Origin: Takakia lepidozioides
Lineage: Eukaryota; Plantae; Bryophyta
Assembly: GCA_030704615.1 (NCBI GenBank)
Contig: CM060733.1
Location: forward strand, 30,504,001 to 30,568,000
Reading direction: 5' to 3'
Length of the DNA stretch: 64,000 nt
A model generated the notes under the pieces. That model ran no database searches. It was not told where the DNA came from and saw nothing but the letters and a program-made list of their open reading frames with translations. Positions within the stretch are counted from its first letter, which is position 1. Each line of letters begins with the position of its first letter. The translations under genes and the position numbers were made by a program. Shown in pieces: positions 25,561-53,790 of this stretch.

Positions 25561-25664
25561 CCTGCATATGTGTAATGTAGTAATACATATATATATATGA
25601 AGAAATTAATTGGTGAAGGTCGTGAAATATCTCGAAGAGTAGTGTATTGTCTCTAGGCTTAATA

Positions 25665-26389: not shown

Positions 26390-27295
26390 CACACCCCTAC
26401 CAACAGGGAGTCGATGTCCTCATCGACTTGTCCATTTTGTAGAAACGAACATCCAAGTTGTGGCGTCCCACATCAAGGAGTTTGTTTCCGTACCATGGCG
26501 TCCCATGGCAAAGAACCAAACCCCACACTTGACTCCACTCTCCACTAGCTAGTTCGGCCGACTTCCTCCAAGTCCCGGCCAAGGGTGGAGCCTCTCCAGC
26601 TCCTCCCAGTGCACTCTTCTTGGCCTACTTCAAGGCCAAGGAACGATCCTTCCCGAGGATCGAATCGCCTTACTGCAACAACATTGCTTGCGATCGCTCA
26701 TGATGCCGCTTTTGGCATCACCTTGAGCAAGGGTTCACCTGGAACCCTCTTTGACTAGGAAGATAACCTTGAACCAACCGTGCGCCCCAATCACTACAAT
26801 TGGGTCCGCCTTGGAATGCTGGCCTGAGGTACGGGAACACGCCGAAGCCGCACTACGACTTCGTCCCGAGGCTACACGATTATAGTACGTGAACGGAAGC
26901 ACGTAGCTTCCGCGTTAGCCCGCACTACAAGGCAACCCCCTCGGTAGCGCAGTTATAGTACGCGCACGCGCCAGGTGCGCACTAGCACTTGAACTCCCAA
27001 ATAAGGCGCAAGTTTCCTTGCCCCTTGGATGGGGGTCACCCGATTTCGGCACTGCGCAAACACACGATTAACCCAATTTACCTCTCCCACTTTTGTAAGC
27101 TAGCATGCATTCTACACACCAGCCAACCACACCATGCATCACCATTCCAAACACAATAGGACGCACAATATTTGGAACCCATTTCCTTTATCACAAATTT
27201 TTGTACAATACAAGTTTTTGCAATCGGATTCCTGAGCTAGCTAAACCGGGCTAAGCATGCATTTCCTCCCCCACGCTCCAAGGTTGATGTCCCCA

Positions 27296-30200: not shown

Positions 30201-31856
30201 TGTCTCCTCCACGGCCCACTCCTTTGCTGATAGAAGGTTTATTCGCCCTCCCACGGATTTGGGCGTTTCCGACACTCGTAAAACCTCGCCACCATTCCCA
30301 CATGGCAGCGTGACTACTCTCTTGCGGCCATCTATGACCGCTCCGGATTTGCTCAAAAAGGTCATTCCCAAAATGAGATCCACTCCATCGATCTCGCAGA
30401 TAGTGAAGTTCTCACGTCCCTCCCAACTCCCCAGTTGAAGAGGAACATCAAACGCCAACCTTGTCGCCAACTGAGGTTCTCCTTTGGCAGAGCGCACCTC
30501 AATAGAGGCCCCCACGTCACTTGTCGGGAGTCCCAACTTTCGCGCCGCCGCCGGCGTCATGAAGGAGTGCGACGCTCCTGTGTCCACCAACAACGACACA
30601 TTAGTTCCGGATATTATCCCATCCACGAACAATAACTGACTCCCTTTTCGTAAGGCGCCAGTTTCCTGATACAACTCACAAGAAAATTTGCCTACCTTGC
30701 AAGTCCTGGCGACCACCGCTTCCACCAAGCGACTGATGGTATCTTCCGACAGCTCCGTGGTCGCCCGAGTCATGTTCAATTGCCGGGGCTTCGTGCACTT
30801 CTTGGCCATGTGCCCGGGCTCCCCGCAATTGAAACACACTCCATCAAAGGTCGCCTTCTGTCCGCCATAAGTCGCTCCACCCGCTTTTCCTTTCGAAGCA
30901 CCGGGTGCCGCCTTGACGTGTGAAGGACCTCCCTTCGATTTCCACGTGCCATTTTCGCCGCGTGGCCTATCCCACTTCTTTTCCGGTCGGGAGGAGTCCC
31001 CTTCCCGCCGGGTCTTCTTGTGGTTCAGCTCCGTACGGCCTTGTCTCTCACCCCTAGGGACATCCGAGAAACATTCAGCTCTCTCAATTGCCTCGTTCAA
31101 AGTCTTGGGTGGCTTCTCCTCCAACTTCCGCCTAGCCCATGGGGCCAGTCCCGCCACAAAGTTGAAGACCATTTCTGGTTCTGCCATGTCCGCGACTTCG
31201 AGCAACAGCACATTGAAAGCCTGGACATACCCCCGAATGTCATCTGTTTGCTTCAAATTCCTCATCTTGTCCCGGGCAAGCCAGGACGCGTTGAGGGGCA
31301 CAAACTGTCTCTTCATCAATTCCTTGAACTCACTCCAGTTCAAGGTTTCCGGGCTTGGGCCTCGGTCGTGAAGGCGTTTCTGCCACCATTGTTGAGCATA
31401 GCCCCTCAAATAGGTAGGAGCCACTTCCACCCGATCCTCGTCACTCAACTTGGCCGCCCGGAAGTACTGCTCTAGCTCCAGGAGCCAGGTGTTGAGTGCC
31501 TTCCGGTTTCGAACGCCCTCGAAGGTGCCGGGTTCCTTAGGCTTCACCTTAAACTTTGCCTTGGTGGAAGTGGCATTAGCCGCCTTCAACACGTCTTTCA
31601 ACGTCCCGCCAAACTGCGCCAACAACCCTTCCCAAAAGGCTGCCGGCATGGGAGGCATCTCTTGGTTTGTCGGAGCTCTCAAAGATTCCTCGGGCTCCGA
31701 CTCCTCGGATTCCTCCCGCTCCTGAGCGGCCTCGTTTTCGGAAACATTAATCGCTTCCTCAAACGGCCGCCTCGGTGACACGTCGCCCCCATCGGGCTCA
31801 CCGGGATCATCATCTTTTGGGCCGTTCCGCTTTCGCTTCGGCTTGCCCGACCCCAT
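27296..31856 (-). CDS. Gag-Pol polyprotein (Gag with CCHC, aspartic protease, RT, RNase H, integrase, chromodomain); two 1-nt frameshifts at ~29145 and ~27478
   Basis: [14 protein letters not shown]; LLVDTGAS; YIDD; [10 protein letters not shown] after frameshift; [13 protein letters not shown]; SMDF..SDRD..ER; [22 protein letters not shown] chromodomain after frameshift. Confidence 0.93.
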
Positions 31857-31911
31857 GATGAGGCCAATCCCAAGGACGATCGCGTACTGAACTCTAAGCT
31901 CTGATACCAAA

Positions 31912-32636
31912 TGTCGCACACCTCAATTCGGTAAACTCCCCTTCAAGTCATAGTTACTCGCTTTGATGCGCGCGCCTGACTCCCAACCTGGCCGCCGGGC
32001 CAACTTGGAGTTTCGGCTGCTCACCGGGACATAACGGTCCCCTTCCGCTTCCCTCTAAACCCTCCACCTATTTGGGACTAGGAGAATTCCCTTGGTAGAT
32101 GGCAGTCCGGAACAGCTCCCCACTCTTTGGTCGCTTTCCGGCTCGCTCGCTTACTCACTAGTTTTTGGTCACCAACGGGCTTGCACCGTTCTCGGGGTTA
32201 CTACTCCCTATATATACTTCTGTAGCTGTCCGCGGGGGTTTCATAACCAGCCATGCCATTTTATGGCGAACCACCACGAAAACCCTCGACTCCCGGTGGT
32301 GAGTCGCGGTGAGTCTTGGCCCACTCACCGCGGCCCCAATGGACCGTGATGAGTCCCAAGACTCCCCACGACTCCCACCTCGAGGTCTCCACCCCATGGT
32401 GAGTCCTATGCCACCCCCACTAAGTCCCACTAAGCTACCACCACCCCTTGTGGAGCCACCTCCACCGCAACCCGGTGTGCGGGGCTCCACCTAGTGAGCG
32501 CCTCCGCCTCCTTGAGTGCCTTGGGCACTCAAGGGTGCTTCAGCCCCCCCCATACCTATCGCTGCCGCTGCCCCCACCACAGGGGCAGCCCCTCATGTGT
32601 CCCGACCCCCTGCCCTCAAGGCAAAGGGCCGCGACA
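31912..32636 (-). repeat. 5' LTR of chromovirus
   Basis: Followed on the minus strand by the iMet PBS. Confidence 0.97.
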
Positions 32637-33723: not shown

Positions 33724-36700
33724 CTAACCCATTAATATTACAGAGCCTCCTCCCAAACGGCTCGCAGTCAAGGCATGTGTTCGAAGACGCCTCCGGTTAC
33801 CACAACCACTTGCAACGGTCTCCGTACCAGATGAAACGGAAATACTTTCGGAGAACTCGAACCTAGTAGTAACATTATCATCCGAAATGTTACTTGGAAC
33901 TCTACTTGTTGAATCTCTTGATGCCCTTGAAGCCTGCCGGGAAGCCCGCCATTCTTGCCAATCACGAAGCTCTTCTTCTTCTTTTCGAATTCGCTCCTTG
34001 AATGTGACTGGGCAAAACAATTTTTCATATGACAAATGTCAGCTGAAATGTGGAACATTTGTAGAAAAAATGATAAAGTAAAAGTGCAAGTGAAAGATAT
34101 TTTTAAGATCAAATTCTCCATAAACAACAAACAGTGGGATAAGTACATACCAAGGTAATCAAGTTCATTTTGTTGTGGGATCCAAACACGAGAATCAACA
34201 TATCTTCCAACCAAGCCAATAGGCATGGTCGCGACCAATAGGCTTACGAGAACACTTGGCAGGGTTCTCGCTGATGTAATCTACGACTGTTGAAGCTGCA
34301 ATCATTTTCAATATATATGGTCACACAGCTTTTATCATATCATCCTGGTCAACCAAGCCCTTTGGTGATGGCTTGTATGAAATAGGGAAGAATCCAGTAT
34401 TTGGTGGGTTTTGGAGGCCCTTTGATGGCTCATCATCGACAAGGAGTATTTGTCTCTACGTTGCAAAGGGTGTACAAGGGTACTTGGCAAGAACAGTGCG
34501 AATATCCTTAACGAGTTACTTCATCCCAGACATGATGTACCCGGTAGTGTCTTTGCAATCCTCAGCTGACCAGATGAAGCAAAACTTCTTCGCAATTTTC
34601 ATAGGAACTAAGCACTCGAGCATCCTACAAAAGAACAACTCTTTCAGCACATGACCAGATCGCCACGTGAAAATGCATGAACGCAAGGTTGAGAAACTCC
34701 AAGACTCCGGGCCGGGGAACCACAAAAGGTCTGTCGGGAACATGAATTGTAACTTTCCTGAAACGAAATCTCTCATTAAACAATTCACCGCCTGTTGGAG
34801 GTGGCCGGTAGCAGAAGAGACCGTTGACACTCAATATTAATAACATCCGTTTTCTCTTCCCCGATGTGGCAAATGAAGGTTGATGGACGATGCCATCATG
34901 CGCAATTTAAGTGTTCCCGCCGTCAGAAACAACACGATGTAGTATTTCTTAGTTTCAGAGTGACCTCTACATTTTCGGAGACATAAGTGTTCCGACAATG
35001 GACTACTGTAAAGGACCAAGAGTAGACCATATATCGAAGAGTTCGAGATCAAAAAAAGATGAATGTCGGCTGTCAAATGGAGGTTAATGGACACACCTTG
35101 TCGGGAGGCGCATTCAAGAAGTTATGCGGCTCCATACTCGCTTGTACAAGAGTTAGTTTGGGACAGCAAAACAAACTACAAACGAAAGTGGAGAAATTGT
35201 TTTGAAATGTACCATTGAAGCCTTATTGGAATGTCTTGCAGAAGAACGGTGGATTCCCGCGGGCTTGGATTGACGAGGCGCCACAACATCTGAGGGAGTC
35301 CTCAAGTGTTTGGAGTCCGCTTTTTTTTTCTTGTCACCCTTTTGTCCGTTGGAAAGATTTCCTGCAGAGGAAAGAAATGGCTCGGGGGCTCTTTTTCGCC
35401 TCTTTGGTGCAGAACATTGTGCCAGCAGTTCAGGGTCACATTGTGTCGATGTTGGAGATTTTTTGTCATTGAACGACGGGAGGAGTGGAGGGGCAACAAC
35501 AGGCAAGCACAGAAAATTGTCCCTTGAGCACTCGATATCCTGGATGGAATGAAAACGCAATGAAGGAATAATTTACCTCGGAACTGCATTCCAATGCAGA
35601 CGTCGTTTGACAGGAAGGGCATAATCTGTAGATTTTCTTACCTAGAGCGACAGATGAATATCAAACCCCAAACTAAGTGAAACTAGGAGAATGAGCAAAG
35701 AGCAAGAAATGAGTTTTAAGTCACCTGACTCCTGCGGATTTGGGCTGTCGGCTGTCCTGGCAGTACTTACTTTGAGGGAACTTGAAGGAAACTGCTGAAG
35801 TTACAAGGCAATTACATACATGAGTAAATTTGAGTTACCTATGGACTCTTCTGATGGGGGTGGGGCTGCAGAGGAGGGAGGAGGATAGAACATGAGAAGT
35901 GGAGGACAAAACAAAATCGAAGAAAAATTCCTCCAAAAACAATAAACCCAAAAAATTGAGCCCAAAAAAACTTTGAAGGCGGTGTGTGTCCAGGTGTCGT
36001 CAACGACATCTTAATTCCCACCTCATGTTTCCACAAACATTTCATGGAAAATCCCAAAAAACTAGAAAATTTGAATCCAACAAAACTACAAAGCCGACAC
36101 CTATGCAGGTCACAGCGATTAAGGTGTCGTCAACGACATCTTAAATCCCACCAGCTGCTGCCACATGTCTTTTCACATTATGGCCCAAAAATGGAAAAAA
36201 CAGAAATCCAACAAAACTTTGAAGGCGGTGCGTGTGCAGGTCGGGGCGATAAGGTGTCGTCAACGACATCTTAATTCCCACAACCTGTTGCGATATGACA
36301 GTTCATGGAAAAACCCAAAAAACCAGGAAAAAAAATGAATCTAAGAAAGCTTTGAAGGCGGTGGGTGTGAAGGGGGGATTAAGGTGTTGTCAACGACATC
36401 TTAATTCCAACAACCTCAACAGAATTTTCAAGGCAGTGCGTGTGCAGGTTGGGGGGATTATGGTGTCGTCAACGACATCTTAATTCCCAACAAGTTCTCA
36501 AAAAACAAAAACAAAAACAAATAAACCGTTTTTTTTTTTTTTTTTTCCTCCTCGAATGTGGCAGATTAAGGTGTCGTTAACGACATCTTAATTCCCAGTA
36601 CGAGTTGGCACATGACAATTCATGGAAAAACCAAAAACCCCAAAAAATTTCACCCAAAAAATTTCAACCCACAAAAATATAATGGCGAACAAGCCTTGGC

Positions 36701-37628
36701 GGTAAGGTGGTGTGTGTGCAGGTGCTGGGGATTAAGGTGTCGTCAACGATATCTTAATACCCAGTACGAGTTGGCATATGACAATTCATGGAAAAATAAA
36801 AAAAATCCCAAAATTCACCCAAAAAAATCTTATGGCGAACAAGCCTTGGCGGTAAGGCGGTGTGTATACAGGTGCTGGGGATTAAGGTGTCGTCAATGAC
36901 ATCTTAACTGGAAAAATGACAAGTAACCCCTCCTCAATCCACAAAGCAATTAAACTCCGGCAGGACAAACCACACGAACCTCGCCTGCCCAGTGGAGGTT
37001 CCTGCGTGTTACTAGGCTTACACCCAAATCTAAAGAAGGCAGAGAGGTGAACTCGTGCTTTACAAATATACTAGAGGTCTAGTGGTCTATGGAGACTAGT
37101 CTACTAGAGTAGCCTAGCCCCGAAGAAAAACCCGTTTTCAAATATCGGAAATTCAGAAAAACAATCGCAAAAAACCATGATCCTAACCCGCCATAACCCT
37201 AATAATCCAGCAGCACCAATAAACCAGGACCACAAACCACGCATACGAACCACCCTTACAAACCACCATACAAACCACCAGCAGAGAAGCAGCAATGCAT
37301 TGAAACACCTAAACAGCTTTAATCAATTCAAACTAATTGAAATAGCTTTGGAACCACATGAATTGAAATGAGATGCTCCGCATCAGATAAGACAGCACAC
37401 TCACGAAACGTGACATGCAAGAAACAAATGGTGTTCTATAACCTCTAGAACGAAAGCGAGTGAGGAAGACAAGTAAACCAATAGCGACGTGGGCGATGTT
37501 GACCAACAAAAACAACAGCAAAACTAAAATGAAATCAACAAACAGAACAAACATCAAAGCGAGCAAGAGAGAATGACATCAAAGCAGATGCGTAAACGAG
37601 AACATTACCTGCTGGATGCGTGAGCCAT
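33724..37628 (-). pseudogene. Multi-exon pseudogene with an FCP1/NIF-type HAD phosphatase domain (domain ~34260-34845)
   Basis: LLILSVNGLF, RPGVLEFLNLAFMHFHVAIWS, FIWSAEDCKDTTG, LVKDI, ILLVDDEPSKGLQNPPNTGFFPISY, VVDYISENP with a frameshift and stops; putative first exon ATGGCTCACGCATCCAGCAG|GT at 37628 and micro-exons near 35727-35795. Confidence 0.7.
35990..36910. repeat. Array of 8 copies of a 24-bp near-perfect palindrome TAAGGTGTCGTCAACGACATCTTA
   Basis: Copies at ~35992, 36120, 36250, 36380, 36459, 36567, 36733, 36883; spacing 79-166 bp; spacers mutually related. Confidence 0.92.
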
Positions 37629-38362
37629 TTCGGTGCCCCTGTTGCTGACCTGAAACACCTGATCCTTAAGCTTCCACCGCTCCGCTCCGCTCTCCCTTAC
37701 GCTCTGCTTCCCTCCCATCTCATGTCTGCACTTGAATATGTTGTCTGCTTCCTTTCCTCCACTGCACTCTCACGCTGCACTGAATAGCACACTCTCTTCT
37801 CTCAGCTCTCACAGCACCCTGCACAACATGCTCTCTACTCTTTATGCTCTCCCCTCTTCAAAACTATTTGTTTTCTAGCGCTAGTCGGTCTTACCGCTTC
37901 CGCAGCGCTTCCGCGTACACAATGGAGTGGCGAAAGGGTGGGCTGAACGACCACACCCCTTATATGGTGCCGTCGCAAAGGATCTGAACCATCGCGTCCT
38001 TTCGAAATCGAACGGTCGCGCGTGTTCCATCCAACATCCATGCAAATATCATCCAATTCATCATTTCCATTCTGTCCATCCATTTTACGAATGACTAGAT
38101 GAAATGAAAAAACAGATGAATGAACGAGAAAATATGACGTTAATGATCCCTTGCACAAGATCATCAATTATAACCCGCGGGATTTTCCCACACCCCACAC
38201 GTGACGATAAATGAAATGTACAAGTCAGATCCTCCTGCGGCGTTTTGCCGCTATGAATTATTGCTCCTGACCATGTCTACATTCGGTGGATTAAGGCTTG
38301 GAATATTTCCTCTGTCACTCATTTATGCCCGCCCTCATTTCGGCCGAGTGTCATAGCTGCAC

Positions 38363-38549
38363 TGTCGTGCGCATACATATCGCTACACAACTAATCGCTG
38401 TCCAAAACCACACAACACATGTGTACACCACACACTAGTATACCACTAGTCCACCACTAGTCCAACCACTAGTCCAACCACTAGGCTACAACTAGTCAGT
38501 CACTAGGCTGCCACTATGCTGCCCACTATGGCAGTCACTAGTCCACACA
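38363..38549 (-). repeat. Duplicate of the 3' LTR segment of the DNMT-bearing gypsy element (TG..CA)
   Basis: Near-identical to 38872-39036, with extra ccactagt units. Confidence 0.8.
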
Positions 38550-38550
38550 A

Positions 38551-38869
38551 TGATAAAGAAGAAGAATACAAGCACGAGCTCACAAATCTGAAGCATAAAC
38601 TCATGCATATATAACCTCATCACTCAAATACAAGTCAAGCCAAGTGCACCCCACGCCATGGGGAATCCACACTACGGCGCCATAGCTAGGCGCGGTGAGG
38701 CTCAACTCGAAGAAAGAAGCCCTTCCACGCTTGCCGTGAAGATAACCACTCCAGGGCCTAAATCTGCCTTGACCCCTGGATTGACACTTGGGCCAATCCC
38801 AAATGTCAATATGTAAAAGCTAGTTATTTCCTAGCTAGTTTCACACACAGTATGTAAAATAACTTGACA
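38551..38869. mobile_element. ~319-bp solo-LTR-like unit (TG..CA); inverted copy at 50705-51021
   Basis: tgataaagaagaagaatac...aacttgaca is the reverse complement of 50705-51021 with few differences. Confidence 0.8.
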
Positions 38870-39304
38870 GCTGTCGTGCGCATACATATCGCTACACAAC
38901 TACATCGCTGTCCAAAACCACACAACACATGTGCACACCACACACTAGTATACCACTAGTCCAACCACTAGGCTACAACTAGTCAGTCACTAGGCTGCCA
39001 CTATGCTGCCCACTATGGCAGTCATTAGTCCACACAATCGCCCCCCTAGCTGGTGCTTAGGTCCCTCTAAGTCCAGGTAGCCACAAGATGTGATAGTGAC
39101 CATAGCCTCACTAAGTCCTCCACCACTATCCCTACTACACTCAAACTCGATAGATCAAGAGGCCGGGTGCAAGAGTTGCCCCATCGTTAGTCGCCGTCTT
39201 GCAACCTGTGAACTTGAGCTTGGGATCTCATGTATTGACTCCTATGAGCTTGGCCTCCCATGTCTTGTTAGCTGCCTCCAGTCATGTCCACTGCCACTAT
39301 CCCA

Positions 39305-39490
39305 AGCGTGTGGACACAACCAATCTCCGTCAGAACCTTCTCAAGAGGTGGTGTCAAGCATTCCATATCTCCGTCACGAACCTTTCTCAAGAGGTGGTGT
39401 CAAGCATTCCATATGCCAACCCCTGAGCATCGATCACACACAGCATGGTGGCTGCCCCTTGGCAGACCCACAAGCATGCACCTCAAACCT
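39305..39490 (-). pseudogene. PHD zinc finger at the integrase C-terminus (frameshifted, with a ~45-bp internal duplication)
   Basis: Reconstructed across frameshifts: LRCML(C)GSAKG.ATML.CDRCS.GWHMECLTPPLEKV.DGDWLCP, the C4HC3 PHD signature. Confidence 0.8.
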
Positions 39491-42389
39491 GCAGGTACCA
39501 CTGCCAGTTTGGGTCACTCTGCCATCGACATTGGGAAGGGACATGGCGCACAATTACGCCCACATTGTCCTTCCAAGTCATGCCATCCCAACCCTCCAAG
39601 ATCAGGACCCCCTGAGTGCAAACACCTCTCGAACCTCAGAATAACACGCCTGCAGTAACATCCAGAGTCGTAGGAGCAGTCTGCTGCAAATAAACATAGT
39701 CACCAGGGCTAAACCTCCGAACCCCAGGACGATATCCTCCACCACGTATAGTGGCATACCTCAACGTATCACGGTGCTGTGCAATGGCAAGGTTCTCAAA
39801 AGCCATGGCATGACTTTCTTGAACAACTCTGCACACGCTGATCACATACACGTACCCACATGTCCGGATCGTCAAGGTTAAGGACTTGAGAGCAGTGTCC
39901 CTACGAATGGCTGCAGGCATCCGGCTCTCGGCCAAAGAGAAGGAAATATGGTGAGAAGGAGACAAGTGATGCTTGTTTGCTGACCTGTAGCCCATGGCTA
40001 ACCAAGGACTGAAGATCCCAATCTCCTAGGTGTCCCTTCTGCAAGCCATACTTGCGCAAACCCTCTTCAACCCGTCTGACAACTCTCTCTGCTAAGCCAT
40101 CGGCCTCAGATGATCCCGAGAAGTGGTGCGGTGGTCTATCAAGGCTTCACACAAGCCTGAAACTCCCCCAAAACTCTCTCCTTGGTCCGTGAGTACCTCA
40201 GCTGGAGCACCAAATCGGCTAAGCACACGACTCCAAGAATGCATACGCAGCCCCCTCACTACTACCTGTCGGCAATGGAACCAACTCAATCCACTTGGAG
40301 AAGTGCTCCACCATCACCAACACATATCTGTGGTGGCGCATAATCAGTGGCAACGGTCCTGCGAAGTCAAACTCCACCTGTAGCCCAATCCCATGATTGG
40401 TAAGGATGCAACTGTGGTGTAGGGGCGTTGAATGAAGCACGCACCCTGTCACACACCTGCACCTAGCCACGAATTGTTGCACCTCTGTATGCATACCACG
40501 CCACCAATACTGCCCCCTGCAGTAAACTGTGAGGCGTCGCACTCCAAAATGCCCCACTCCTCATGGGCATGCCGCACGAACACGTGCACGCTGTGGGGTG
40601 AGGCACAATCCTCACCCGACCATCCTCCCACACTCGAGTAGTGTATCCCCCCCACTTGAACCTCTTGGCTCGTTGCAGATCCGATCTCTCCCTGGCAGTC
40701 ACAATGGCTGCCTGTCTCCCGTGCGGAGGTAAGTCCAACACAGCGAATCTCATGTATATCTCTGCACCACCTAGCTCATCACTAGCCTCAGGGTCCTCAG
40801 ACACTCCGTCTCAGTCATCCCTGTTGTAGGTCCATCTGACCTCCCGATGCCAAGATACACACAATGCAGATGCGTGCCATCCCGGCACCATCTCCTCGTC
40901 CGTATCACCATGGCCACCGAGCTCCAGTGTCCTTTGCTAGCTCATGCATGGATTGCGACTCAATCCATCCGCATCCCGATTGACCAAACCCGGTCGATGC
41001 ACAACCTGAAAGTCATACTACTCCTGGAGTATAAGTGCCCACCGTGCAAGCTTCCCCGTAAGCTGTTCCTGACTCCATCAACCACTTGAGTGCTGGTGAT
41101 CCGTGACAAGGGTGAAAAGATTGCCGTAGATAGCACCTGAAGTGTGCCACGGCCCACACTGCAGCTTAGCACTCTCCCTCATATGAGCTGTACTTAGCCT
41201 CTGGCAGCGTTGTTTCGAGCGGCTACATAAGCCACTACGAACTCTCTTCCTCATCATCCCCTGTGTGAGCACCGCTCCAAGCCCAGCATGCTCCAATCCG
41301 TATACAGCTGAAAGGGACGCCCCCTGATAGGTCGTCTCAATATAGGCGCCGAGGTCAACCTCGCCTTGAGCTCTTGAAAAGCTCTTCCTGCTCATCTTCC
41401 CACTGCCACCTCCTGGTCCACCTTGGTCAGCTTGGTTAGAGCCTTGCAATGGTACTAAACCCTTGACAAAACCGTCTATAATAGTTTGCCAACCCATAAA
41501 GCTCGAACTCGGCTCACATCCGTGGCGTTGAATTTGTGCAATGGCCTCTACCTTAGTCTGCTATACCCCCAATCCTCCAGGATATATCATGTGACCCAGA
41601 TACTCAATCTGGTTGTGGAAACTTGCACTTCCCCGATGCAACTTCAATCCGTGCACTCTCAAGCGCTCCAATACCACCTGAAGGTGTCTCTTATGCTCCT
41701 CCATCGTAACACTAAAGATGATGATGTCATCTATGTAGCACCGAAACAAAGTCACCCCCTGCTAGAATCCTATCCATGACTCTCTGAAACTCTTGCAGGA
41801 GCATTCTTAAGCCCAAATGGTAAGAACCGCCACTGATATAGGCAATCTTTGCCGTGCTCATTGATCCCCCCAGAATGCCGTCTCTTGCTTGTCCGCCTCC
41901 TTGATTGGCAACTGGTGATATCCGGATCGTAAATCCAAAGTGCTAAGGCCTTAGCATGCCCGATGGCATCAAAGATCTCCTCTGGTGTTGGCATGGCATA
42001 CTTATCAGACTTGGTCTGACGATGTACAGACCGGTAATCACCGCACATACGTCTCTCCGTCCAATTGCCATAGACATCCTTCTTGGCTGGCATCACGTTG
42101 CAACCTCTTGAGCAGTACTCCATGCCTGCTCAGTCCAATGACAAGGCCTCATCCGCCCCCCATCATCTCATCCTTGAGGACCTCCTCAACCCGAGAATCC
42201 CCAACTCATCCCTCCCACACAGCCGCCTTGGCTGCCAACTCCCTCTGAACCTCGAGCACCTCCCATGTGTGCCATGGATGCATGCAACCCCGTGGTCCTC
42301 ACATGCTCGCCCCCACTCACTGACCTGTTACCGTCTCGGTAGGCAGAGAGCCATTGAGGGAAGTGTACCCGCACTCTGCGTTGCTCAGC

Positions 42390-43350
42390 AGAGCCAAGCT
42401 GATAATCCAGGTCAAGCAATTGAGATCCATTGCTTGCCCCAACACTTGACGACGTGATGCCTCAGAAAGAGACGACACCGCCGTGGTACCAGTGGTAAAA
42501 TCCATTGCCCGCTCACGCTCGTCAGCATTAGGCTCCACTAACTGCTGCAAACTGAGCATCCCACAGGAGGCCAGGTCCACTATCCCGGAAAGCATGCGAT
42601 CCTGGGAAGCTGAGCAGTGTAGGTAATGTTGCTCGTGGTTGACCCACCTTGTTGACCACTGCCAAGGCGAACGGTCATCGTGTCTCACACGCTGAGACTG
42701 CCTCCCTGTGTCTAGAATGTTATCCACTGTGGAGATGTGCTGGCCGATGCACCCCATCAAATGCACGCTTGAGCAGTGCGGGTGGCATCAAGTTAGTCCA
42801 CCATAGCCGTGGACGATGAGCCCGTGACCCCACTATAGCTGCATCTAGCAACACTGCTAACCCAAGCCACGACCGACTTGATGCACAGTAGCCATCACCC
42901 TAGCCCAGACTCGCCCATCAGTGGCACATTCTCCAAGATGTATGCTGGAGATACAGCTTGATGAAGCTGCAAGTGGCGCAAAACCCGCACCATCTCCCAA
43001 AACAGACCCGACCTCGATTCTCGCAATCCATTGCCATGCCCGGCTTGATGAATGCCCTTGGCAGGGCCAACCTGCCACTACCAGATCAATGGAGCCAACC
43101 CGCTCCAAATCCTGCGCCCCCAGCAACGAAATGTCTGCTGGGTAAGGCCCTTCTGATATCCATGAATTGCAGACACCGACACCAACTCAGGGTACCGCTG
43201 CACCAACTGAGCAACATGGCGAAGTGAAACGCGTCGTGCACTCTCATCCCTCTCCACATAAGGTAACGCCGAACTCGTACACCTGCTTGTAACACAGCAG
43301 CCAATCCGGTGCTGATCCCGCCAAACAAGTCCAGAAGACAAATGCCTTCA
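42390..43350 (-). pseudogene. DNMT3-like cytosine-5 DNA methyltransferase domain inside the retrotransposon pol
   Basis: Motif I LLDLFGGIS, II YVERD, IV DLVVAGWPCQG, VI YILENV, VIII DAAIVGSRAHRPRLWWTNL, IX ERERAMDF..GTT, X RRQVLGQAM, in correct order. Confidence 0.9.
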
Positions 43351-46300
43351 TCCGGATACTGCCACACAATAGGTGTGGTGTCCAATGGAGACAATTGAGG
43401 TGGTCCTGGTGCAATCCCCACACCCTCTCCTCTCCTCTCCTGACGGTACAAAAGAGCTCCACCCAGGCTTGTTGCACCCGTCGATCAGCATCCCGGTGCA
43501 AATCCTTGCTCGTGCCCCACAATGGAGTCTGAGCAACCATGGTAGGCAACTCCGCCATACCATACATGTCATCCTGCTCTCCCGGAGGTGGTACATCCTC
43601 TGAATGAGCATTGCCCTCAAGCAACTCTCTAGGCCAACTCACTGCCCCTGTGAATGCTGCTAGTGTCGGCATCTTGCCTCGCTGGGCAAACCGCAACTCT
43701 CCTATGAACGTCACAGGGAGCTGCACACGCGCGGCCCTCCCCTGACTGCCATGCAGGCCTATAAGAAGCTGACTCCTCCCAAAAAATCCAGGGTGAAGCC
43801 CATAGGTACAACACTGCCCCACCAACCAGGACATCGTATGAGACTGCGTCTGTCACAATGGCCTTGGCTCGCATCACTGAGCCATCTGTAGGGTGATCTG
43901 GCCGTAGTCTGATAGCCAACTCACACCATGTCATGCCCCAAGCCTGCTCCGATCCTCCCAGAGACGTTTGTATCTGGAAAGGACAAGGCTCCATATCCGC
44001 CTCCGTGAGGCCCAAGCCTGCAATAGTAGCTCCGCCCAGCATCAATGGCTGAGCTCTCGAGTCCAACAAGACCCGCAGTGGCCAGTACCTCTTGCCTGCC
44101 GGTCCACTCAAACAGAAAATGCCATCCTGGTGTCTAACATGACAACTCTAGGTGTCACCATGGCGCGCTCAATGGCTGGCCTAGCTGGCAGCTCCATCAA
44201 CCTGGCAGCTGCAGCTTGCCATGGCGCCGCCGTGGCAGTCTTGACCCTCAAATCCGAGGATCCCTCCGGCACTACACCTCCCATTATCTCCGCAGAAGAT
44301 GAAGTAACCTCCCCACTCTCACAGAGTGTAGCTGCCAGCCTGAACACCTCAGCTGGTCTTACCCCCGGCGTCGGTAGCCGAGAATAATGGAGCCTGGCAC
44401 ACAGATGTGGCCGCTCCTAGCAGCACACTAGCTGCCGTAGCCTTGGCGACACTAGGTAGTGGTGCTACCCGTGTAGCTCTCCCCAATGGCATAGCAACCT
44501 CCGCCTCGGTAACAGTCGGCGAGAACTAGGTGTCATGGATGGCGTCGACACTGTCTCCGCCAATGTGAATGACTGAGGAAGCCTAGCCTGACGGCTTGCC
44601 TCCCCACGCTGTGGATCCAACTCCACCTCTGCACCTCGTGGCTCAGGAACTCGTGCTGCTCCTCGAGTCACGGCTGCAACAGACTCCACCTACACTAGTG
44701 GTAGTGCTGCTCCACACATGAATCCCATGCCTCCCATATCTCCTCCCTCAGGAGCAGGAGGTGGACCATCCGGCCTTAGAGCCGGTACCACCTGAGCTGT
44801 AGCCATGGCAGCGAGCCTTTGCTCTAGCTGCAAAAGCCGGTTGGCCATGCCTTGGTCAACCCCCTGACCTCCGCGTCCTTGGCCATGTTGAGCTTGCCTT
44901 TGGCCTGCACCTCGTCCTCTCTGGGCTGCTCCACCTCACCCCCGGCCACCATTGTTCCCTTGGAACTGGCTTGGGCGCAACTCAGGATGCAAACCATAAC
45001 ACTGGGCCTCTCGATGCCCGTGCTTACCACAATGCCCACACTGCAACTATGCAGGCTGTGCATGTGCCGGCCCTTTGCCTCCCTCTGGGAAATCCTTCTT
45101 GACATGGGGTCCTCCACATGTCTAACACACCACATCCGCCCGTTGTTGCCCAGCAAATGAAGGGAGAGACCCCTGCATCTGAGGTCCTCTCTGCCCTTCC
45201 CTGAGCTTCACCTGAGCCCCCTTGTTGCCTTGAGCACGTTGAGGTAGTGGTTGGCTAGGAGCACCACTACCCCGTAGTGTCTCCTTAGCAAATCCCACCG
45301 TGACCACTCGTTCCTCCACCATGTTGAGCTCTATCCGCTCTGCCAGCAAAAACACATTTGCTAAGGTGGGTTGGGCCGCTTGTAGGAGAGTTGCATCCCG
45401 CACCCTTCTCCTCAGCTCCTTGTCCAATATCCCATACCAGAATTGGACTGCCTGAGCTTCCGTAACCCTTTGGGTTACATTTATCAAGCGCCTCATGCGA
45501 GTGAAAGCCTCCCTCAAGCTCTTGGTCGGCTTCTATTGGAACTCTTGCAAGCTCCGCAACTTCTCTGTCCTCACCCCTTGGTAGTTCCCTCTCAACTCTT
45601 CGAAGAACTCCACAACAGGGTTGAAGGCAGGCACGGGTGCTAGTGCTGGTGCGGTAGTGGCTTGGGTGGACATCGTAGCTACTGTACCACTAGTCCCACC
45701 AGTCCCACTGCTACTTGCTGAAGCTGCCGGTGCAACGACAAGTGTAGCCACTGCCCTCGTGGCTCTAGTGCCCCTAGTGATGGAGACATAGTCGGGTGAC
45801 CAGTACATCCTCCACTCCTCGATCTCAACCTCATGCCCCTGCCTGAACTCATGGTAATCATCCATAGGCGGCCCCTCAAGGTGCTGAAACAACCCCTTCC
45901 ATGCCATGAAAGGCGTAAATAGTTGTGGATTGCGCATTTGCTGCAAATCACACCAACTATCAAACTCTTGGATAAAATCATCCAACTCGATGGTGCCCAC
46001 CGCCCCAGAGTACCTTCGTGGCCCCTTGGTAGCTCCATACATCTCCTCCATTGTGTCCCACAACAATGACAAAGAAACAACTTGCACCGCTGGTATGAGT
46101 CCTCCTGATTCACAATCCGAATCAGAACCTTCCGTAGAAGACACAGGAGGTGAAGGTGGCCTAATCCGCACACCTCGTCTCGTGTACCCACTAGTATCGC
46201 TAGTGCTCGAACCGGCACTGTCCCCAGCAACTAGTGGCACCTCCGTGTTGACACTCAACCGGTCATGAACATGTCCCTAACCCCCTCTCCACAAGGTAAC

Positions 46301-46757
46301 CGGGTAGAGAACCTGTTGCGGCTTATGGTTTGGAATACTAAGTTCCTAACATAGCCTACACCTGTACCTGCATCCACCGCAAGCACTCCTATGGTTGGCT
46401 GGTCATCACCTCCAACCTCACCACAGGAGAAACAATGATGGTCTGGCTGGTCATCACCCCAGCCTCACCATCGACAGCATGCTCTAGGACTGGCCGGTGA
46501 TCAAATCCGGACCAATCACCTATAAAAACAAGCGCCCACACAAAACTAGCATGGCGCACAGTCAAGCATGCAGGTATGGAGGGGATCCAAACACAAGAAA
46601 GCAGAACGACAACTCCCCCACACCAAAAACAACTCCACGGTGTTGCTCCTGCAAGGACACCCCAGCCCAAACCCGGACTGACTGTTGCCTCCACCTACGG
46701 AAAGGTCTTGGCCTAATGAGAGGGTGGAAACTACGAGGAAGAGAAGCTAAAGCACCA

Positions 46758-49700
46758 GACCGGGCACGTACTTGGGTCATGAGGGCGAACGAGCACAAAA
46801 AACCTTTTCTCAATATCCTTGAACACGGATTCAGGGATATTCTTGGTCGCTCATACCTCGGGCCACAGTAAGGTTCTAGGATTTCATCCTCTTCTTCCAC
46901 ATCTGGCACTATATGTGGATGGATTCCATCTCTGCGATGATTCTTGGACCAATTTGTTTTCGGCCAGAATCCCTCAAGAAGCTGAATACGCTCGGGAGCT
47001 TCTGGAATTGGCTTATCCAGCTCGGCGAGAATGTTTCCCCAGTACTGGTCGTATTGTTCCATTCGACCTCTATAATGATCGTCAAACATCATTCCTTTCG
47101 TCCAAAAATCCTTGTATTTTTTTATTCCATTCTTAATGAATGACTGTTTTTCGGAGGAGTCGTCCCCGACTCCCCAGGTAGGTCTCATTGGAACGGCGTC
47201 TGGGTCTCCTTCAGGGAGCTTCGGAGTCCCGTCAGGATTGGACTTCCACATCTTCACGCTATTGTTTGTTGAAAGCCAATCCGAATCAGTAGCGGACTTC
47301 TTGTACTTCATGACAGGCCAGCCCTCCGCATCCTTAAAAAAGCGGAAGACGTGCATCTCCGAAATCCCGACCAACGCCTCCTTTCCATCGAGAATACAGC
47401 CCTTGACAAAATTCTTGAAGTCAGGAACCTCCTGAATAATCTGTGGAATGAACTGCAGATTTTGCGAGGTCATAAAAGACCTTATCAAATCCGAAAGAAT
47501 GTAGGTGCTTCATTCCTTCAGCTTCTTCGATAGGTAGCTGAAGAACCCGTCGATGTCCTCATGGGTGTGTCCGACCATTAGGAACCCTAGTTGGAGGAAT
47601 AGCAAAGCAAACATCCATCTGTTCTTATTGTCCTTCGCGGAGTTGTCCATTTGCAAGTACAGTCTTCTCGGAAGTGGACAAGCACCACATTTGTCTTCCG
47701 GCCTGCAGGGTTTAAGAGCATCCAAACATCTCGATTTATCTCTTAAAAGTGATTCGAAAAACTCGTTTTGAAGTCGGTAATCGAAAATGTTCCTGGACTC
47801 GCGACAGGTTGGCTTCTCCAACTGGTGCAGGCAACGTACCAAAGAACCAATTGTAAAGTTTGAATTTTCCTTCCAGAACTTAAGAGAATACTGTCCGTAA
47901 GCTCCATCACCGTGTCCGTGCGTGACCATTCCCGTTAGTGAAACTGGAAGCTGACCCAATCCAAAAATCATCTTGTTTGGAGTCTGTAGCCTTGGAACAG
48001 CTGTTTTCCTATGATCCATTTTGTCGTGAATAATACAGAGAAACTCCTCCGGAATCATAATAGACTCATTCCTCCAGCTATGGTACAGTCTTCTGCACGA
48101 CTCTTGGTGCCTCAAATGTTTATCAAGAGCTCGTTTGTGTGTCACCTATTCCACACTTCTCTTGACAGACTTTCCGATCAGGTCCTTTAACATCTCACAC
48201 TCCGTGCACTTCGCAAATATACTCCCAGTTTTACGAACCTCCACGTTATGAAATATCCGACTCCAGATGCGGCTAACAGCCGACTGCGAGACTCCTTCCA
48301 ACCCGAATAGTCTGTTGGACTGTTACAATAAGGTAGGGTAAGGAAAAGAACGTCCACTGGACAGTGGAGGTTCATGAAGCTAGAACCACAGTCGAAAGAG
48401 ACAAAATCGAAGGGAGGATCATCCAAATTGAATCAGAAAAAACATCCAGGAAAGAAATTGAAGAATGGAGATTTCATACCTCGTTGGACTCGTCTCGTAT
48501 TTGCTTCCAGTTCATTTCAGGTGGTAAGACTCTCAAAGTATCCCTCCTTCCCTCCCCAATGCATCTTGTCTTGTGGGGGCATGAGGTTAGTATTTCCGTT
48601 GATAATGGACATAATGTTACCCTCTGCCTGAAGCGTCCTTGGGCGTGGTCTCTTCACTCCACGGTTCCCATGGAGACTTGACAACCAACCCTGTTTACTC
48701 AATTTTTTGTACTCCATGTATGTGGACCTGCCAATTCCATGAATTGTCCACCAAGCAGTCTCACAAACATCCACACCCTCAATCGTAACGCATGCCCTAC
48801 GAGAGGTCCCTTCCAGCATGTGAAGTCGTTTTGAAACATTTAGTCCGTGTTCTCTCTTCTCATCGAAAGTGGATCCCCAAAACAAAGTACGGATAGCCAA
48901 GGTTTTTCACCAATCGAAATATGGACAGCTTCCTCGTAAAATGCCGATACGCCGCTTTCTTCACACCTGCCTCGTGATCTTCGTACAAGATACTGTTAGA
49001 GGATCTAATAAAATCCTCCAGATCATTTGAGAGTAGTCTCCCACTTTCCAAAAGTCGTGTTTTTGTTAAATGCCATTTTACAAGAGACATCAAAGATCCA
49101 GAACCTCCTGAAAGTATTCTGATGACAAGAACTCCAACATCGTCCTCTCCGAGTTTGTCGTTGAGGATCACCTCGTCCGGAATGTAGGCTTGAATCCTCC
49201 CCTCAAACAGTGCACCCCCATCATCACCCAACAGTACGCACTGCAAGTTTCTCCAGTTGTTTCTTCCGAGTCCTCCGCTTGGATTCCCGAAATTCTTCAA
49301 TGGTCTGTGGTTTGATTCATCCTTGTCGACGTTAGAATTCTCGGCAGTATCCCTTGTCTCCGGCATAAAATCAGGATTCATGTCAGGCCCTCCTTGATAC
49401 TCGTTATTCTCCGCATGAACTTCGCCAACATTCCACACCACCGGGATCCCAATGGCCTCCTTCAAGGTGTCAGCATCCATATGTCCATAAGGAAGATGAC
49501 ATAATGAGTGTGCTTCATCACAGGAGATGAGAACCACTGAAATGGTTGAGGAAGATAATTGGTGTCCATGACAGGTCCCAACCCCGGAGACATTAAGGCA
49601 ATCCCCAGTGGCTACTGAAGATGAAGACCTAGGAAGAGTAAGAAACACTCTTTGACCCATCTCTAAGCTCATGATCACCGGAACCTCCACTGCACACACG

Positions 49701-50550
49701 AGGTTCAAGAAACTGAAAACCCCTCCGTGACGACCTTACTTACAGTAATAAGCAGTATGAGTTAAGACTATATTGAGAGATCAATCAATACAATAAAAGG
49801 AAATACACTCACGTATGAACGTTTCAGAGAAGTAGAATAGAAATGGAATTATTGTTTAGTCTAGAACATGTCATGTGAAGATTGTGTCTAATTATATAAC
49901 CTCCACTGTACAGTGGAGGTTGGATGAGATACAGATGAAAAAGTCGGACGGATGAATACTAGTGGATGAACATGGTTACGTGGATGAATAATTGTAATGA
50001 CGGATGGATGTGAGCATTGACGCGACTGTTCAGTGGAGGTCCACGACTTGAGGTATGACGAAATACAGAAATTGGAGAGTATTGGACTGTAATTTCTAAA
50101 CATGCAGATCAGAAATAAGTAGATTTTCCTGTAGAGTATCGAAAACACACAGATGTCATAACATTTTCTACGGGAGAAAATGAAGTTCGCATGAGAGATT
50201 ATGGAAATTCAGAGAGGTACACCTGCGATGGCCACAGAGGTACAGGATGCTCAGAAAGGTGCACTATGGGAAGTGAGGTGGGAGATGAGCAGAGAGGTGC
50301 GGGAAACACAATCTGCAAGTGAGAGGTATGGACATAGAAGTTTGAACAGTTTGCACTCAGACCTTATATAGAGGTGGGAACCAGGTTGCCCGTTGGAACT
50401 CCTCCAATGGGATAGTGCGATACATTGTCTCGCGGATCAATTTCCGTCGCCGTTGATATCCAATATGGCCACAATCGAACGGTTCTGGATGGTGCAGGAG
50501 TGCACTCTTTGACCGATTTCGGAAAAGAGTGTCCTTTACTGGTAGATCCC
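46758..50550 (-). mobile_element. Sola1-like DDD DNA transposon (disrupted), 3' end truncated at the gypsy junction
   Basis: Transposase motifs IIHDKMD, LYLQMDNSAKDNKN, FLMVGHTHEDIDGFFS; upstream SLHGN region; fragments 48860-49708, 48517-48900, 47510-48145, 46760-47488; possible terminus GGGATCT at 50550 next to TATA. Confidence 0.7.
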
Positions 50551-50704
50551 TATATAACAATTATGATGCCAGACCGATAACGGCCGATAACGGTGGTTCA
50601 ATGGTTTGGCACCCGTGCTTATAAAGCAGTACGTATTTCGCATTCAATGGCGTCCAAGTGGATGAAGGCCTGACGCCGATGACAAGCGTTTCATGAAATC
50701 GTGC

Positions 50705-51021
50705 TGTCAAGTTACTTTACCACTAGTGTGAAACTAGCTAGGAAATAGCTAGCTTTTACATATTGACATTTGGGATTGGCCCAAGTGTCAATCCAGGGGT
50801 CAAGGCAGATTTAGGCCCTGGAGTGGTTATCTTCACGGCAAGCGCGGAAGGCTCATCTTTCTCGAGTTGAGCCTCACCGCGCCTAGCTATGGCGCCGTAG
50901 TGTGGATTCCCCATGGCGTGGGGTGCACTTGGCTTGACTTGTATTTGAGTGATGAGGTTATATATGCATGAGTTTATGCTTCAGATTTGTGAGCTCGTAC
51001 TTGTATTCTTCTTCTTTATCA
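50705..51021. mobile_element. Solo-LTR-like unit, inverted copy of 38551-38869
   Basis: tgtcaagtta...ctttatca; reverse-complement identity. Confidence 0.8.
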
Positions 51022-51830
51022 CTCGAGAAAAATGAGCTCGTATCTGTGAGTGCCAGATACGAGTTAGTTGTAGCACTTGTGGTTTTTTTCTTGAGAATGA
51101 GAGAAACCAAGTTGTTATGTTAGGAGCACCATGAAGCTCTTGGTTGTTAGAAGCGGAGGCGATGTGGGTTACGAGGTGGTAGACCTTGGCATTCGATCTT
51201 CAGCTTCAGAGATGAAAGCACCATGCTGCAGGTAATTCCAGAGCACCTTGATGGTTTCAGATTGTGTACATGCATGAGCAAGCACGATTGGGAAGAGGAC
51301 CAGTCAAGAGCAGGTTATAGTGGCTTTGGTGGCAAAGCTGAGAACTGGACTTGGGAATGCGAGCTTTCATTGTGTGAAGGATTGCAAGACCAAGCGAAAG
51401 GGCTGATTTGGCTTGGGGCAAATCAGTGCACTTTGTGGAGTATGGTGAGATTGGGTTTCAATCTCGAGCTTCAGCATTGAGAGGGCTCTTGTCATGGCAA
51501 GAGCAGGGCTGGAACAGGAGCTAAGAGGTGCGGCAAGGCCATGGAATGTGCACCTAGGGTTTCAGAGCTTGGAAGAAGAGCTCTTGCACCACAAGAGAAG
51601 TGTCTTGTGGCTGGAAATGTAAGCCTTAGGGTTTCAGGAGCTTGGCAAAGGCTGTGGAGTGCTTAGTCTTGTCTTAGAGAGCATCAAGGAGCCAAGGAGC
51701 CAAGATAGGGGGCTGATATCTCTTGTGTGAAGAGGTTGCATGTGTGGAGCATGTATTCAGCCCATTGAAGCTTCCATCTTCAAGCTTGGAGGGCAAGCAA
51801 GGAAGAGGGAAGGGCTGACTTCCCTTATGT
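51022..51830. mobile_element. Decayed retroelement-like relic related to 8840-10000
   Basis: Shared motifs with 8840-10000; PBS-like TGGTGCTTTCAT on minus at 51212-51223. Confidence 0.4.
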
Positions 51831-52180
51831 GACGGGCTGTGAGGGGCTGTGACAGGCTGTGCCCATGGCCTTTGGGGCTGTGATGGGCTGTGAGGGGCTG
51901 TGACAGGCCGTGCCTGAGGCCTTTGAGGCTGTGAGGGCTGTGACAGGCCGTGCCTGAGGCCTTTGGGACTGTGAGGGGCTGTGAGGGGCTGTGACAGGCC
52001 GTGCCTGAGGCCTTTGGGGCTGTGACGGGCTGTGAGGGGCTGTGACAGGTTGTGCCCGTGGCCTTTGGGGCTGAGAGGGGCTGTGACAGGTTGTGCCCAG
52101 TGGCCTGTGGGGCTATGACGGGCTGTGCGGGGCTATGATAGGCTGTGCCTAGCGGCCTGTGGGGCTGTGACGGGCTGTGA
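51830..52180. repeat. GC-rich minisatellite built from GGGGCTGTGA decamers in ~40-55-bp units
   Basis: Repeated gggctgtgacaggccgtgcctgaggcctttg. Confidence 0.9.
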
Positions 52181-52239
52181 GCAATGTGGAGGTGATAGAA
52201 CGTGCGGCAAAATGAATTCTCAAGTGGGATCGAGAGGAG

Positions 52240-53790
52240 GCAGCTGTCCAACGTCTATGTTGCAGCTGGCAACAGTTCGAGAAATGATGAAGGCCAGAGT
52301 TGTGCAGAAGGAGCCAGGCCACAGCTGCATTGAGCTCAACACCGAAGTGCATACATTCATTGTGGTATTACCAGGATTTTTCTCGGAGTAAGGGAAATGA
52401 CAGAGCTCGCGTGCTCTTGTAGTTTCTGCAGATCAAGCAACGAGCAACAAACAGTTCTGACTGGAGTTTTTCTCAGATGCTTCACAGTGGTGGTTTCATA
52501 ATGTACGTTTTTTTCATCTTGGACATGAAATGATTGACACTGGCCTTTTTATGCACTTGGCTATTTCACTTGGTAACAATAATACTCTTCACTAGGAAAA
52601 GGTAGCAAAAGCACTGCACCCATTTTTCTCGAAGGAGAAGACAACAACGTCCTACTGCTGTAGATCCGTGCTCTAGTTTTAATTCAGATCCTCTGTGTTG
52701 GGAGCATTCAGGATGCGCAGGGAGTGTTCAACAGTATGGCTGACCGAGATTTGGTGTCATGGAATGCCATGCTTGCAGGGTATCGAGATGTTGTGTCGTG
52801 GAGTGCGATGATTGCAGGATATGCACAGCAAGGGTGCGGGATGGAGGCTTTCGAGATCTAGGAGCAAATGTTGCGCAAAGGGGGGAAGCCCAACCACATC
52901 ACATTTGTTTGTGTTTGCAATGCATGTGCAAGCCTGGGAGCTCTGGAAAAGGGGAAAGAGGTCCGTGGTGACATCATCCAAGCTGGAATTGTACCAGCTG
53001 TCATTCTGAACACTGCCCTAGTGGACAGGTATGCCAAATGTGGGTGCATTGTCAGACCTGCACAGGGTATGCACAACAAAGGCGCGGGATGGAGGCTTTG
53101 GAGACCTATGAGCAAATGATGGGGGAAGGGGTGAAGCCTGGCAGCCCTGGAAGAGGGCAAAGAGGTCCGTGGTGACATCGCCAAAGCTGGAATTGTACCA
53201 GATGTCATTCTGAACAGTGCCCTGGTGGACAGGTATGCCAAATGTGGGTGCATTTTCAGATCTGCAATTGTACAAAATGTCATTCAGAACAATACCCTTG
53301 TGGACATGTATGAAGGGAGTGTTCGACAGTATGGCTGAACCAGATGTGGTTTCGTGGAGTGCGATGATTGCAGGATATGCACAGCAAGGGTGCGGGATGG
53401 AGGCTTTGGAGATCTAGGAGCAAATGTTGCGCGAAGGGGCGAAGCCCAACCACATCACATTTGTTTGTGTTTGCAATGCGTGTGCAAGCCTGGGAGCTCT
53501 GGAAAAGGGGAAAGAGGTCCGTGGTGACATCGTCAAAGCTGGAATTGTACCAGATGTCATTCTGAACACTGTCCTGGTGGGCAGGTATGCCAAATGTGTA
53601 TGGCTGAACGAGATTTTGTGTCATGGAATGCCATGCTTGCAGGATATGCACAGCAGGGGCGCCGGATGGAGGCCTTGGAGACCTATGAGCAAATGATGGG
53701 TAAGGGGTGAAGTGCGACCACATCACGTTTGTGTGCATTTGCAATGCTATGTAGCTACTCAGACCATCCACCATTTCCTCAGAGTCTTGA
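52240..53790 (+). pseudogene. Scrambled PLS-class PPR (E/E+ type RNA-editing factor) pseudogene fragments
   Basis: E-domain VREMMKARVVQKEPGHSCIELNTEVHTF; repeats PDVVSWSAMIAGYAQQGCGMEALEI, KPNHITFVCVCNACASLGALEKGKEV, VILNTALVDRYAKCG; stops and internal duplications. Confidence 0.85.

Follow-up and report, generated by a model that had tools for sequence, protein, structure and literature searches.

A decayed Ty3/gypsy element in the moss Takakia lepidozioides belongs to a bryophyte family whose Gag–protease gene ends in a DNMT3-type cytosine methyltransferase

Introduction

Can a retrotransposon of a land plant carry a cytosine methylase of its own and, if so, what might the enzyme do? The question is raised by a window of 64,000 nucleotides from Takakia lepidozioides (the whole stretch of DNA that was analysed), in which an earlier note, made from the sequence alone, had recognised a C5 cytosine methyltransferase (MTase) inside a minus-strand gypsy element. 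That note mentioned earlier reports from dinoflagellates and charophyte algae, and these exist: SymbioDIRS-Dnmt3 in the former and KnitGypsy-Dnmt3 in a charophyte (PMC5890265). What cytosine methylases do for the retrotransposons that carry them has been an open question since 2018, in part owing to hosts that are difficult to study. The reading reached here, with a probability of roughly 70%, is that the locus is a defunct member of a Ty3/gypsy family of bryophytes in which the Gag–protease gene ends in a DNMT3-type MTase, with a stop codon that is likely read through and a cDNA that is likely methylated.

The methyltransferase domain

The domain lies at 42405–43345 on the minus strand, without introns and with nine frameshifts and no stop codon. 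The C5-MTase motifs named in the earlier note are all found on this strand and in order, spread over three frames. Motif I (DLFGG) is at 43331–43317, motif II (YVERD) at about 43260, motif IV (GWPCQ) at 43072–43058 with the catalytic Cys codon at 43063, motif VI (ENV) at 42933, motif VIII (AHRPRLWWTNL) from 42821 and motif X (RRQVLGQAM) at 42454–42428; FGG, WPCQ, ENV and the arginines of motif VIII are intact. A frameshift-aware alignment of 43740–42220, with X at the breaks, gives 317 of 491 identical residues with a Calypogeia protein (P0011) and 316 of 508 with a Marchantia protein (P0022), and identity to intact liverwort relatives is 62–65%. Read through its breaks, the domain scores 478 bits over positions 2–329 of a 330-position profile built from relatives, a measure of completeness rather than of class because the profile comes from the same family. 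Pfam run on single-frame pieces misses the frameshifted domain, and the proposed match to PF00145 was accordingly seen in relatives rather than in the window: one of four window pieces gave a sub-threshold hit (E 0.079), while among 21 relatives scanned 13 match at E ≤ 0.001 and 12 lie above the curated cut-off. Judged by its sequence, the window domain is a complete C5-methyltransferase domain with an intact catalytic Cys.

As to class, the structure model of one relative (P0003, pLDDT 83) has DNMT3A, DNMT3B or DNMT3C in all 34 Foldseek rows listed (best E 1.8e-18). By sequence, DNMT3A is the top-ranked PDB match, and phmmer returns DNMT3A at 6e-12, DRM at 1e-8 to 2e-4 and HhaI at 4e-3, with no DNMT1 among 52 hits. 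As modelled, this is a compact, unpermuted MTase domain of DNMT3-type fold whose best solved match is DNMT3.

The claim of DNMT3 likeness thus stands for the fold and the best PDB match, but phage methylases score as well as DNMT3A. Under identical query and scoring, DNMT3A reaches 48.4 bits and five phage C5-methylases 44.6–56.0, so that capture from a host DNMT3 is no more than one possible origin. Dcm enzymes of phage type are the sister group of DNMT3, and the methylase may derive from one of these instead, a source that is possible rather than probable. The LYWTN of phage motif VIII is close to the LWWTN found here, viral clusters rank second and third among the Atlas neighbours, and the marks of host DNMT3 in non-flowering plants, introns and DUF3444 (PMC6453930), are missing, the latter from all 10 full-length relatives scanned. 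Against a phage source, published trees place KnitGypsy-Dnmt3 in a divergent Dnmt3 clade (PMC5890265), and the Foldseek rows are uniformly DNMT3, although the PDB may hold no such phage enzyme. The MTase tree (69 rows) contained no host DNMT3, and a profile search, pulled toward integrase–PHD sequences, returned none.

A bryophyte family with a fixed methyltransferase

Searches with the MTase stretch found 41 proteins among 284 candidates, and with the Marchantia domain 64 among 7994. Matches to the former are named from five bryophyte taxa: Marchantia polymorpha, M. paleacea, Riccia sorocarpa, Calypogeia fissa and Sphagnum. A metagenome scan yielded 77 loci from 113 matches, with the order Gag–protease (PR)–MTase–reverse transcriptase (RT)–RNase H (RH)–integrase (IN)–PHD; RT lies downstream of the MTase in 50 of the 50 loci with room for it. 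These loci were selected by the MTase, so that sister elements devoid of it could not appear among them. The placement of the MTase between protease and RT, as the earlier note had it, is common in position and spacing to liverwort and moss relatives.

The window falls in a bryophyte clade both in the MTase tree (support 1.00; 69 rows, with a random 30 of the RH–MTase–IN type and near-duplicates dropped) and in the RT tree (support 0.99; 38 rows, few outgroups). Where runs contain the window's own family, the element is covered by 64,794 and 71,488 contigs, and three runs show the MTase at the same contig depth as the remainder of the element, a depth that is not a copy number; in run X1 the flank has only about 19. 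Between subfamilies, dN/dS is 0.08–0.19 for the MTase, 0.08–0.13 for gag, 0.12–0.17 for protease and 0.05–0.09 for RT/RH, with dS near saturation and codons filtered by local identity, which lowers dN; between close decayed copies it is 0.36–0.77. The comparison of copies that had been proposed thus indicates purifying selection on the MTase, much as on gag and protease and slightly weaker than on RT/RH.

The MTase is therefore a fixed part of the bryophyte family. That a host methyltransferase retrocopy was inserted once into a single element has a negligible chance of being right, given the shared position and spacing in liverworts and mosses, the even coverage and the purifying selection. 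Of the signs by which the earlier note would have recognised such an event, introns were not seen: the domain is colinear with that of its relatives and intronless.

Position in ORF1 and stop-codon readthrough

The earlier note placed the MTase inside the polyprotein. It does lie on the same strand between protease and RT; it is not in the RT-bearing ORF, and instead forms the C-terminal part of the Gag–protease ORF, which stops 55–180 residues further on. The 39 proteins with both protease and MTase terminate 55–474 residues past the domain, and RT–RH–IN–PHD follows in frame behind a conserved stop. Of 59 loci, 56 have an in-frame stop-CAR-CYN at a single site that separates MTase from RT (40 TAG, one of these rows probably by chance, and 16 TAA), against a background of 231 in 4000; two of the other three loci still have the stop and one has an insertion. 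In 29 hand-picked spacers (of 77 loci), MTase and RT share a frame wherever no indel intervenes. The sequence past the stop is the conserved N-terminus of RT, which in two loci with open Pol ORFs (L026 and L072) starts upstream of any ATG. UAG-CAR-YYA is given as the plant readthrough consensus (PMC3159437). It is matched in full by L026, L072 and one contig 97% like the window, while the commonest form, CAA-CCC of the main Sphagnum-type subfamily (48 of 56), is one base off.

The conserved stop context, with the RT N-terminus in frame behind it, points to an ORF1 of Gag–PR–MTase and to a Pol that is likely made by readthrough, a prediction from sequence held with high confidence. As ORF1 stops before RT, the MTase is also not part of Pol, nor would its level be that of Pol. 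A likeness exists to type I (tobamovirus) readthrough, in which an amber stop with CAA-CCA, CAA-CTA or CAA-CCC likewise stands between an abundant ORF and a polymerase (PMC3159437); here, in contrast, the predicted readthrough would take place in a retrotransposon, after Gag–protease–MTase.

Structure and state of the window copy

In element orientation the copy probably begins with a 5′ end that is now inverted and 4 kb away. GTGC, the left copy of a probable 4-bp target-site duplication (50701–50704, plus strand), precedes repeat A1 (50705–51021, plus strand; TGTC...TATCA), which is 96% identical to repeat A2; the right GTGC, the same four bases, is at 38359–38362 (minus strand). Since both the inverted A and the terminal repeat B2 are flanked by GTGC, a match expected by chance in 1 of 256 cases if there is no target preference, A1 was probably the 5′ terminus of this same element. 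Directly after A1 the window has CTCGAGAA, which resembles CTCAAAGAA after A1 in relatives. In the same place, at 51030–51110 (plus strand), hairpins occupy the expected primer-site position and may permit self-priming.

The remaining parts of the element are on the minus strand. A remnant of the 5′ leader (46052–46757) has no DNA match in relatives, where the distance from A1 to gag is about 1170 nt; family coverage starts near 46740. A TGG at 46757 was considered as a primer site and rejected, as CTC follows A1 in relatives. The 46758–50700 stretch, inside the inferred inversion, carries an unclassified and probably mobile element with DUF7869 ORFs (46760–48145, PF25273 E 4.8e-24) and others besides; it has no CpG loss and a related stretch at 147–518. 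gag (44150–46051) encodes two zinc knuckles and a linker, is 50% identical to Marchantia P0022 over 616 residues and has five in-frame stops (TAG four times, TGA once). The aspartic protease (43716–44144; 51% identity with P0022) reads LLDSR at about 44063, where relatives have LLDSG; one relative's protease matches PF13650 at E 8.8e-5. Behind the MTase lies the ORF1 tail (42096–42404), in which about 250 nt, including the ORF1 stop and the RT start, are gone at about 42099: the MTase–RT spacer is 557–600 nt in the 29 hand-picked relatives as against some 305 in the window, and contigs from two runs continue unlike the window at 42096–42099. RT and RNase H (40950–42096) are broken, with a YIDD motif and 74% identity to the open ORF2 of L026, as are the integrase (39560–40600; H2C2 and core, PF17921 E 1.1e-7, 73% identity with locus L040) and, at the Pol end, a PHD finger (39310–39490), which follows integrase in relatives too. 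The polypurine tract (PPT) AGGGGGGCGA (39038–39047), the same in relatives, directly precedes repeat B1 (38872–39037, ending GACA). The B1/A2 junction (38865–38875) is the palindrome GACA-GC-TGTC, and repeats A2 (38551–38869) and B2 (38363–38550, the 3′ terminus, ending GACA) complete the element.

That this copy is dead, as had been supposed, follows from the five gag stops, the deletion and the inversion. Its description as frameshifted needs more care. The protease–MTase stretch (1740 nt) has 13 frameshifts and no stops, whereas eight decayed relatives have 0–2 frameshifts and 4–11 stops, and many of the copy's indels may in part be assembly or consensus errors. Against general consensus error, a neighbouring gypsy is almost free of frameshifts. 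This neighbour (25664–32636, minus strand) is a young, ordinary Ty3/gypsy with LTRs 99.7% identical, a tRNA-type primer site, no methylase, a single frameshift that separates an ORF of 960 codons from one of 609 and a CpG observed/expected ratio (o/e) of 0.85.

Split terminal repeats and the route of integration

The element had been called a gypsy LTR retrotransposon. The Ty3/gypsy part of this holds, by the Gag–PR–RT–RH–IN order, the DDE integrase, the PPT and the target duplication; the plain LTR layout does not. Neither the window's copy nor its relatives have a pair of full direct LTRs or a tRNA primer site (TGG); the layout is A-coding-B-A-B or A-coding-B, and CTC follows A1. Neither are these DIRS or Ngaro elements, which have a tyrosine recombinase and no target duplication: an rve integrase and a 4-bp duplication are present.

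The terminal structure is known from the window together with its relatives. The window's 3′ end reads PPT-B1-GC-A2-T-B2, with the second A inverted. Among the loci, L034, L057 and L073 share the layout A-coding-B-A-B, while that of L024, L040 and L065 is A-coding-B; L045 is rearranged. Elements begin with TGTC and end with GACA, and the 4-bp duplication is exact in six of seven elements and matches at three of four bases in L024. All seven internal B/A junctions of relatives are GACA-nn-TGTC, the spacer being GC three times, AC once and AT three times, and they are never imprecise. The seven distinct A/B junctions have a single base in five cases and longer filler in two insertions, the filler being leader- or PPT-like (L034, L044/L045).

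B plus A behaves as one LTR, placed behind the PPT. Split repeats together with 4-bp duplications suggest integration from an opened circle: a two-LTR circle, joined at its ends, would be opened by integrase at the internal GACA-GC-TGTC palindrome, and opening at B/A would turn B-A-coding-B-A into A-coding-B-A-B. Foamy virus integrase offers a precedent, as it cleaves the palindromic LTR–LTR circle junction (PMC1180852), although the cut there is at the junction between LTRs and here would be made at a palindrome within the LTR itself. The circle model is put slightly below even odds because its mirror product, A-B-A-coding-B from opening of the other junction, was not found in 77 loci, and because an alternative exists in which the split repeats arise as in DIRS and Ngaro elements. 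RNA would then run from A1 into B2 and strand transfers would build the ends without an end-joined circle. This alternative is tentative. The repeat layout is the same as that of DIRS-type elements as described (PMC5890265), and the single base at most A/B junctions and the missing mirror product also favour it; yet the PPT adjoins B1 as in an ordinary 3′ LTR, there is a DDE integrase with 4-bp duplications and no recombinase, and some A/B junctions hold filler. In the literature searched, integration from an opened two-LTR circle may be undescribed for LTR retrotransposons, and an integrase element with split repeats would escape LTR finders.

Relation to known elements

Elements of this kind are already published for one charophyte, Klebsormidium nitens (de Mendoza et al. 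2018; PMC5890265). As described there, KnitGypsy-Dnmt3 likewise combines Ty3/gypsy domains with an intronless DNMT3-like C5-methylase, is under purifying selection, has DIRS-like split repeats and lives in a streptophyte; gypsy domains with such repeats are present in the window, L034, L057 and L073. It differs in that its DNMT shares one ORF with RT and RNase H, whereas in the bryophyte family it ends Gag–protease before an in-frame stop, and in that the bryophyte family is large and has land-plant hosts. The target duplication, junction palindrome and readthrough seen or predicted here do not figure in the accessible description of KnitGypsy-Dnmt3 (PMC5890265). The named database matches included no Klebsormidium sequence, and the comparison is one of descriptions.

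Green-algal Ty3/gypsy elements (Scenedesmus sp. PABB004 KAF8056149.1, Monoraphidium neglectum) have a homologous MTase (33–42% identity) and a PHD after integrase. Theirs is an RT–RH–DNMT–IN–PHD arrangement, in which the MTase is part of Pol and is flanked by RNase H and integrase. Its motif IV often reads EC, and by RT these elements form a separate clade (support 0.94). Across 209 multi-domain proteins (a redundant set) the MTase stands before RT in 62 and between RNase H and integrase in 147; named members of the latter type are chlorophytes. One protein of the algal type (P0041, MTase–IN–PHD) has a C-terminal stretch with a DPF motif that looks adenine-methylase-like by eye and, if so, would come from a dual-methylase element. 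Other retrotransposon-borne C5-methylases are those of SymbioDIRS-Dnmt3, tyrosine-recombinase elements of dinoflagellates (PMC5890265), and of EpiLTRs, whose DNMTs are described as DNMT4-related and accompanied by Dam and a chromodomain (bioRxiv 10.64898/2026.05.21.726589).

A search of the openly accessible literature found no land-plant description of such elements, their readthrough or their target duplication, and later papers speak only of 'streptophytes'. The present family extends these elements to mosses and liverworts, with an unusual layout. A broader history is conceivable, if rather unlikely as a whole: an ancient lineage of green-plant Ty3/gypsy elements with a PHD finger would have kept one MTase from chlorophytes to mosses while relocating it within the genome, and its bryophyte branch would combine the Gag fusion, a leaky amber stop, enzyme-loaded particles, pre-methylated cDNA and permuted-circle integration through the LTR palindrome.

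A possible function of the enzyme

Made at Gag levels and beside the protease, the MTase would be packed into particles and would be abundant where cDNA is made. The element's protease would release it, the cDNA would be methylated inside the particle, most likely at CG, and the new copy would arrive pre-marked. This sequence of protease release, in-particle methylation and pre-marking is given somewhat better than even odds. Published assays with related enzymes, as reported in PMC5890265, point both ways: SymbioDIRS-Dnmt3 enzymes methylated CG de novo in yeast, and the KnitGypsy-Dnmt3 enzyme gave no methylation there, a result that its authors called inconclusive.

The open ORFs of L026 and L072 differ from their flank in that CpG is lost (codon-junction o/e 0.03–0.08) and CWG is not, the pattern expected from CG self-methylation. 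More fully, the open Pol ORFs of L026 (321–6809) and L072 (9980–12882) show strong CpG loss with CWG excess, and the host flank is depleted of both. As a mark of self-methylation, CpG loss is not general: at Sphagnum-type loci, MTase elements have CpG values of 0.46–0.57 and adjacent MTase-less gypsies 0.38–0.50, so that this subfamily shows no excess over neighbouring gypsies. The low CpG of the window copy can stem from decay after insertion.

The domain might alternatively serve as a DNA-binding or base-flipping module, or act with the PHD finger on chromatin at the integration site rather than on cDNA. This is considered improbable, though several observations fit it. EC replaces PC at motif IV in many algal relatives (about a third of the wider group, 54 against 108, with 42 unparsed), the KnitGypsy-Dnmt3 enzyme showed no activity in yeast, a PHD finger is almost always present and Sphagnum-type copies show no general CpG loss. 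The bryophyte ORFs, on the other hand, retain GWPCQ, ENV and the motif VIII arginines, their domain is tied to Gag and not to integrase, and the loss in L026 and L072 is confined to CG.

Annotations of Marchantia polymorpha, a model plant for which methylation mutants exist, include family members whose ORF1 is long and open, which makes the role of such enzymes testable. A methylase made in Gag amounts would provide land plants with de novo methylation from a new source, and bryophyte annotations that include it could overcount DNMT genes.

Other features in the window

A seven-exon gene at 18795–23291 has 78.5% identity with its Sphagnum homologue and 70% with that of Riccia, which are 71% identical to each other; this one gene, with its two comparisons, makes a moss outside Sphagnum the likely host. 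At 61071–62953 (minus strand) there is a LINE-type RT (PF00078 E 1e-33) with upstream ORFs that extend to the window end. Decayed PPR fragments with an E-like domain (by eye) lie at 52200–53000 (plus strand), interrupted by a short tandem array at 51830–52180. Two bulb-type lectin-like ORFs (PF01453, below cut-off) are at 11417–11944 (minus strand) and 15899–16522 (plus strand), and an array of about seven diverged repeats of 130–166 nt occupies 35990–36910.
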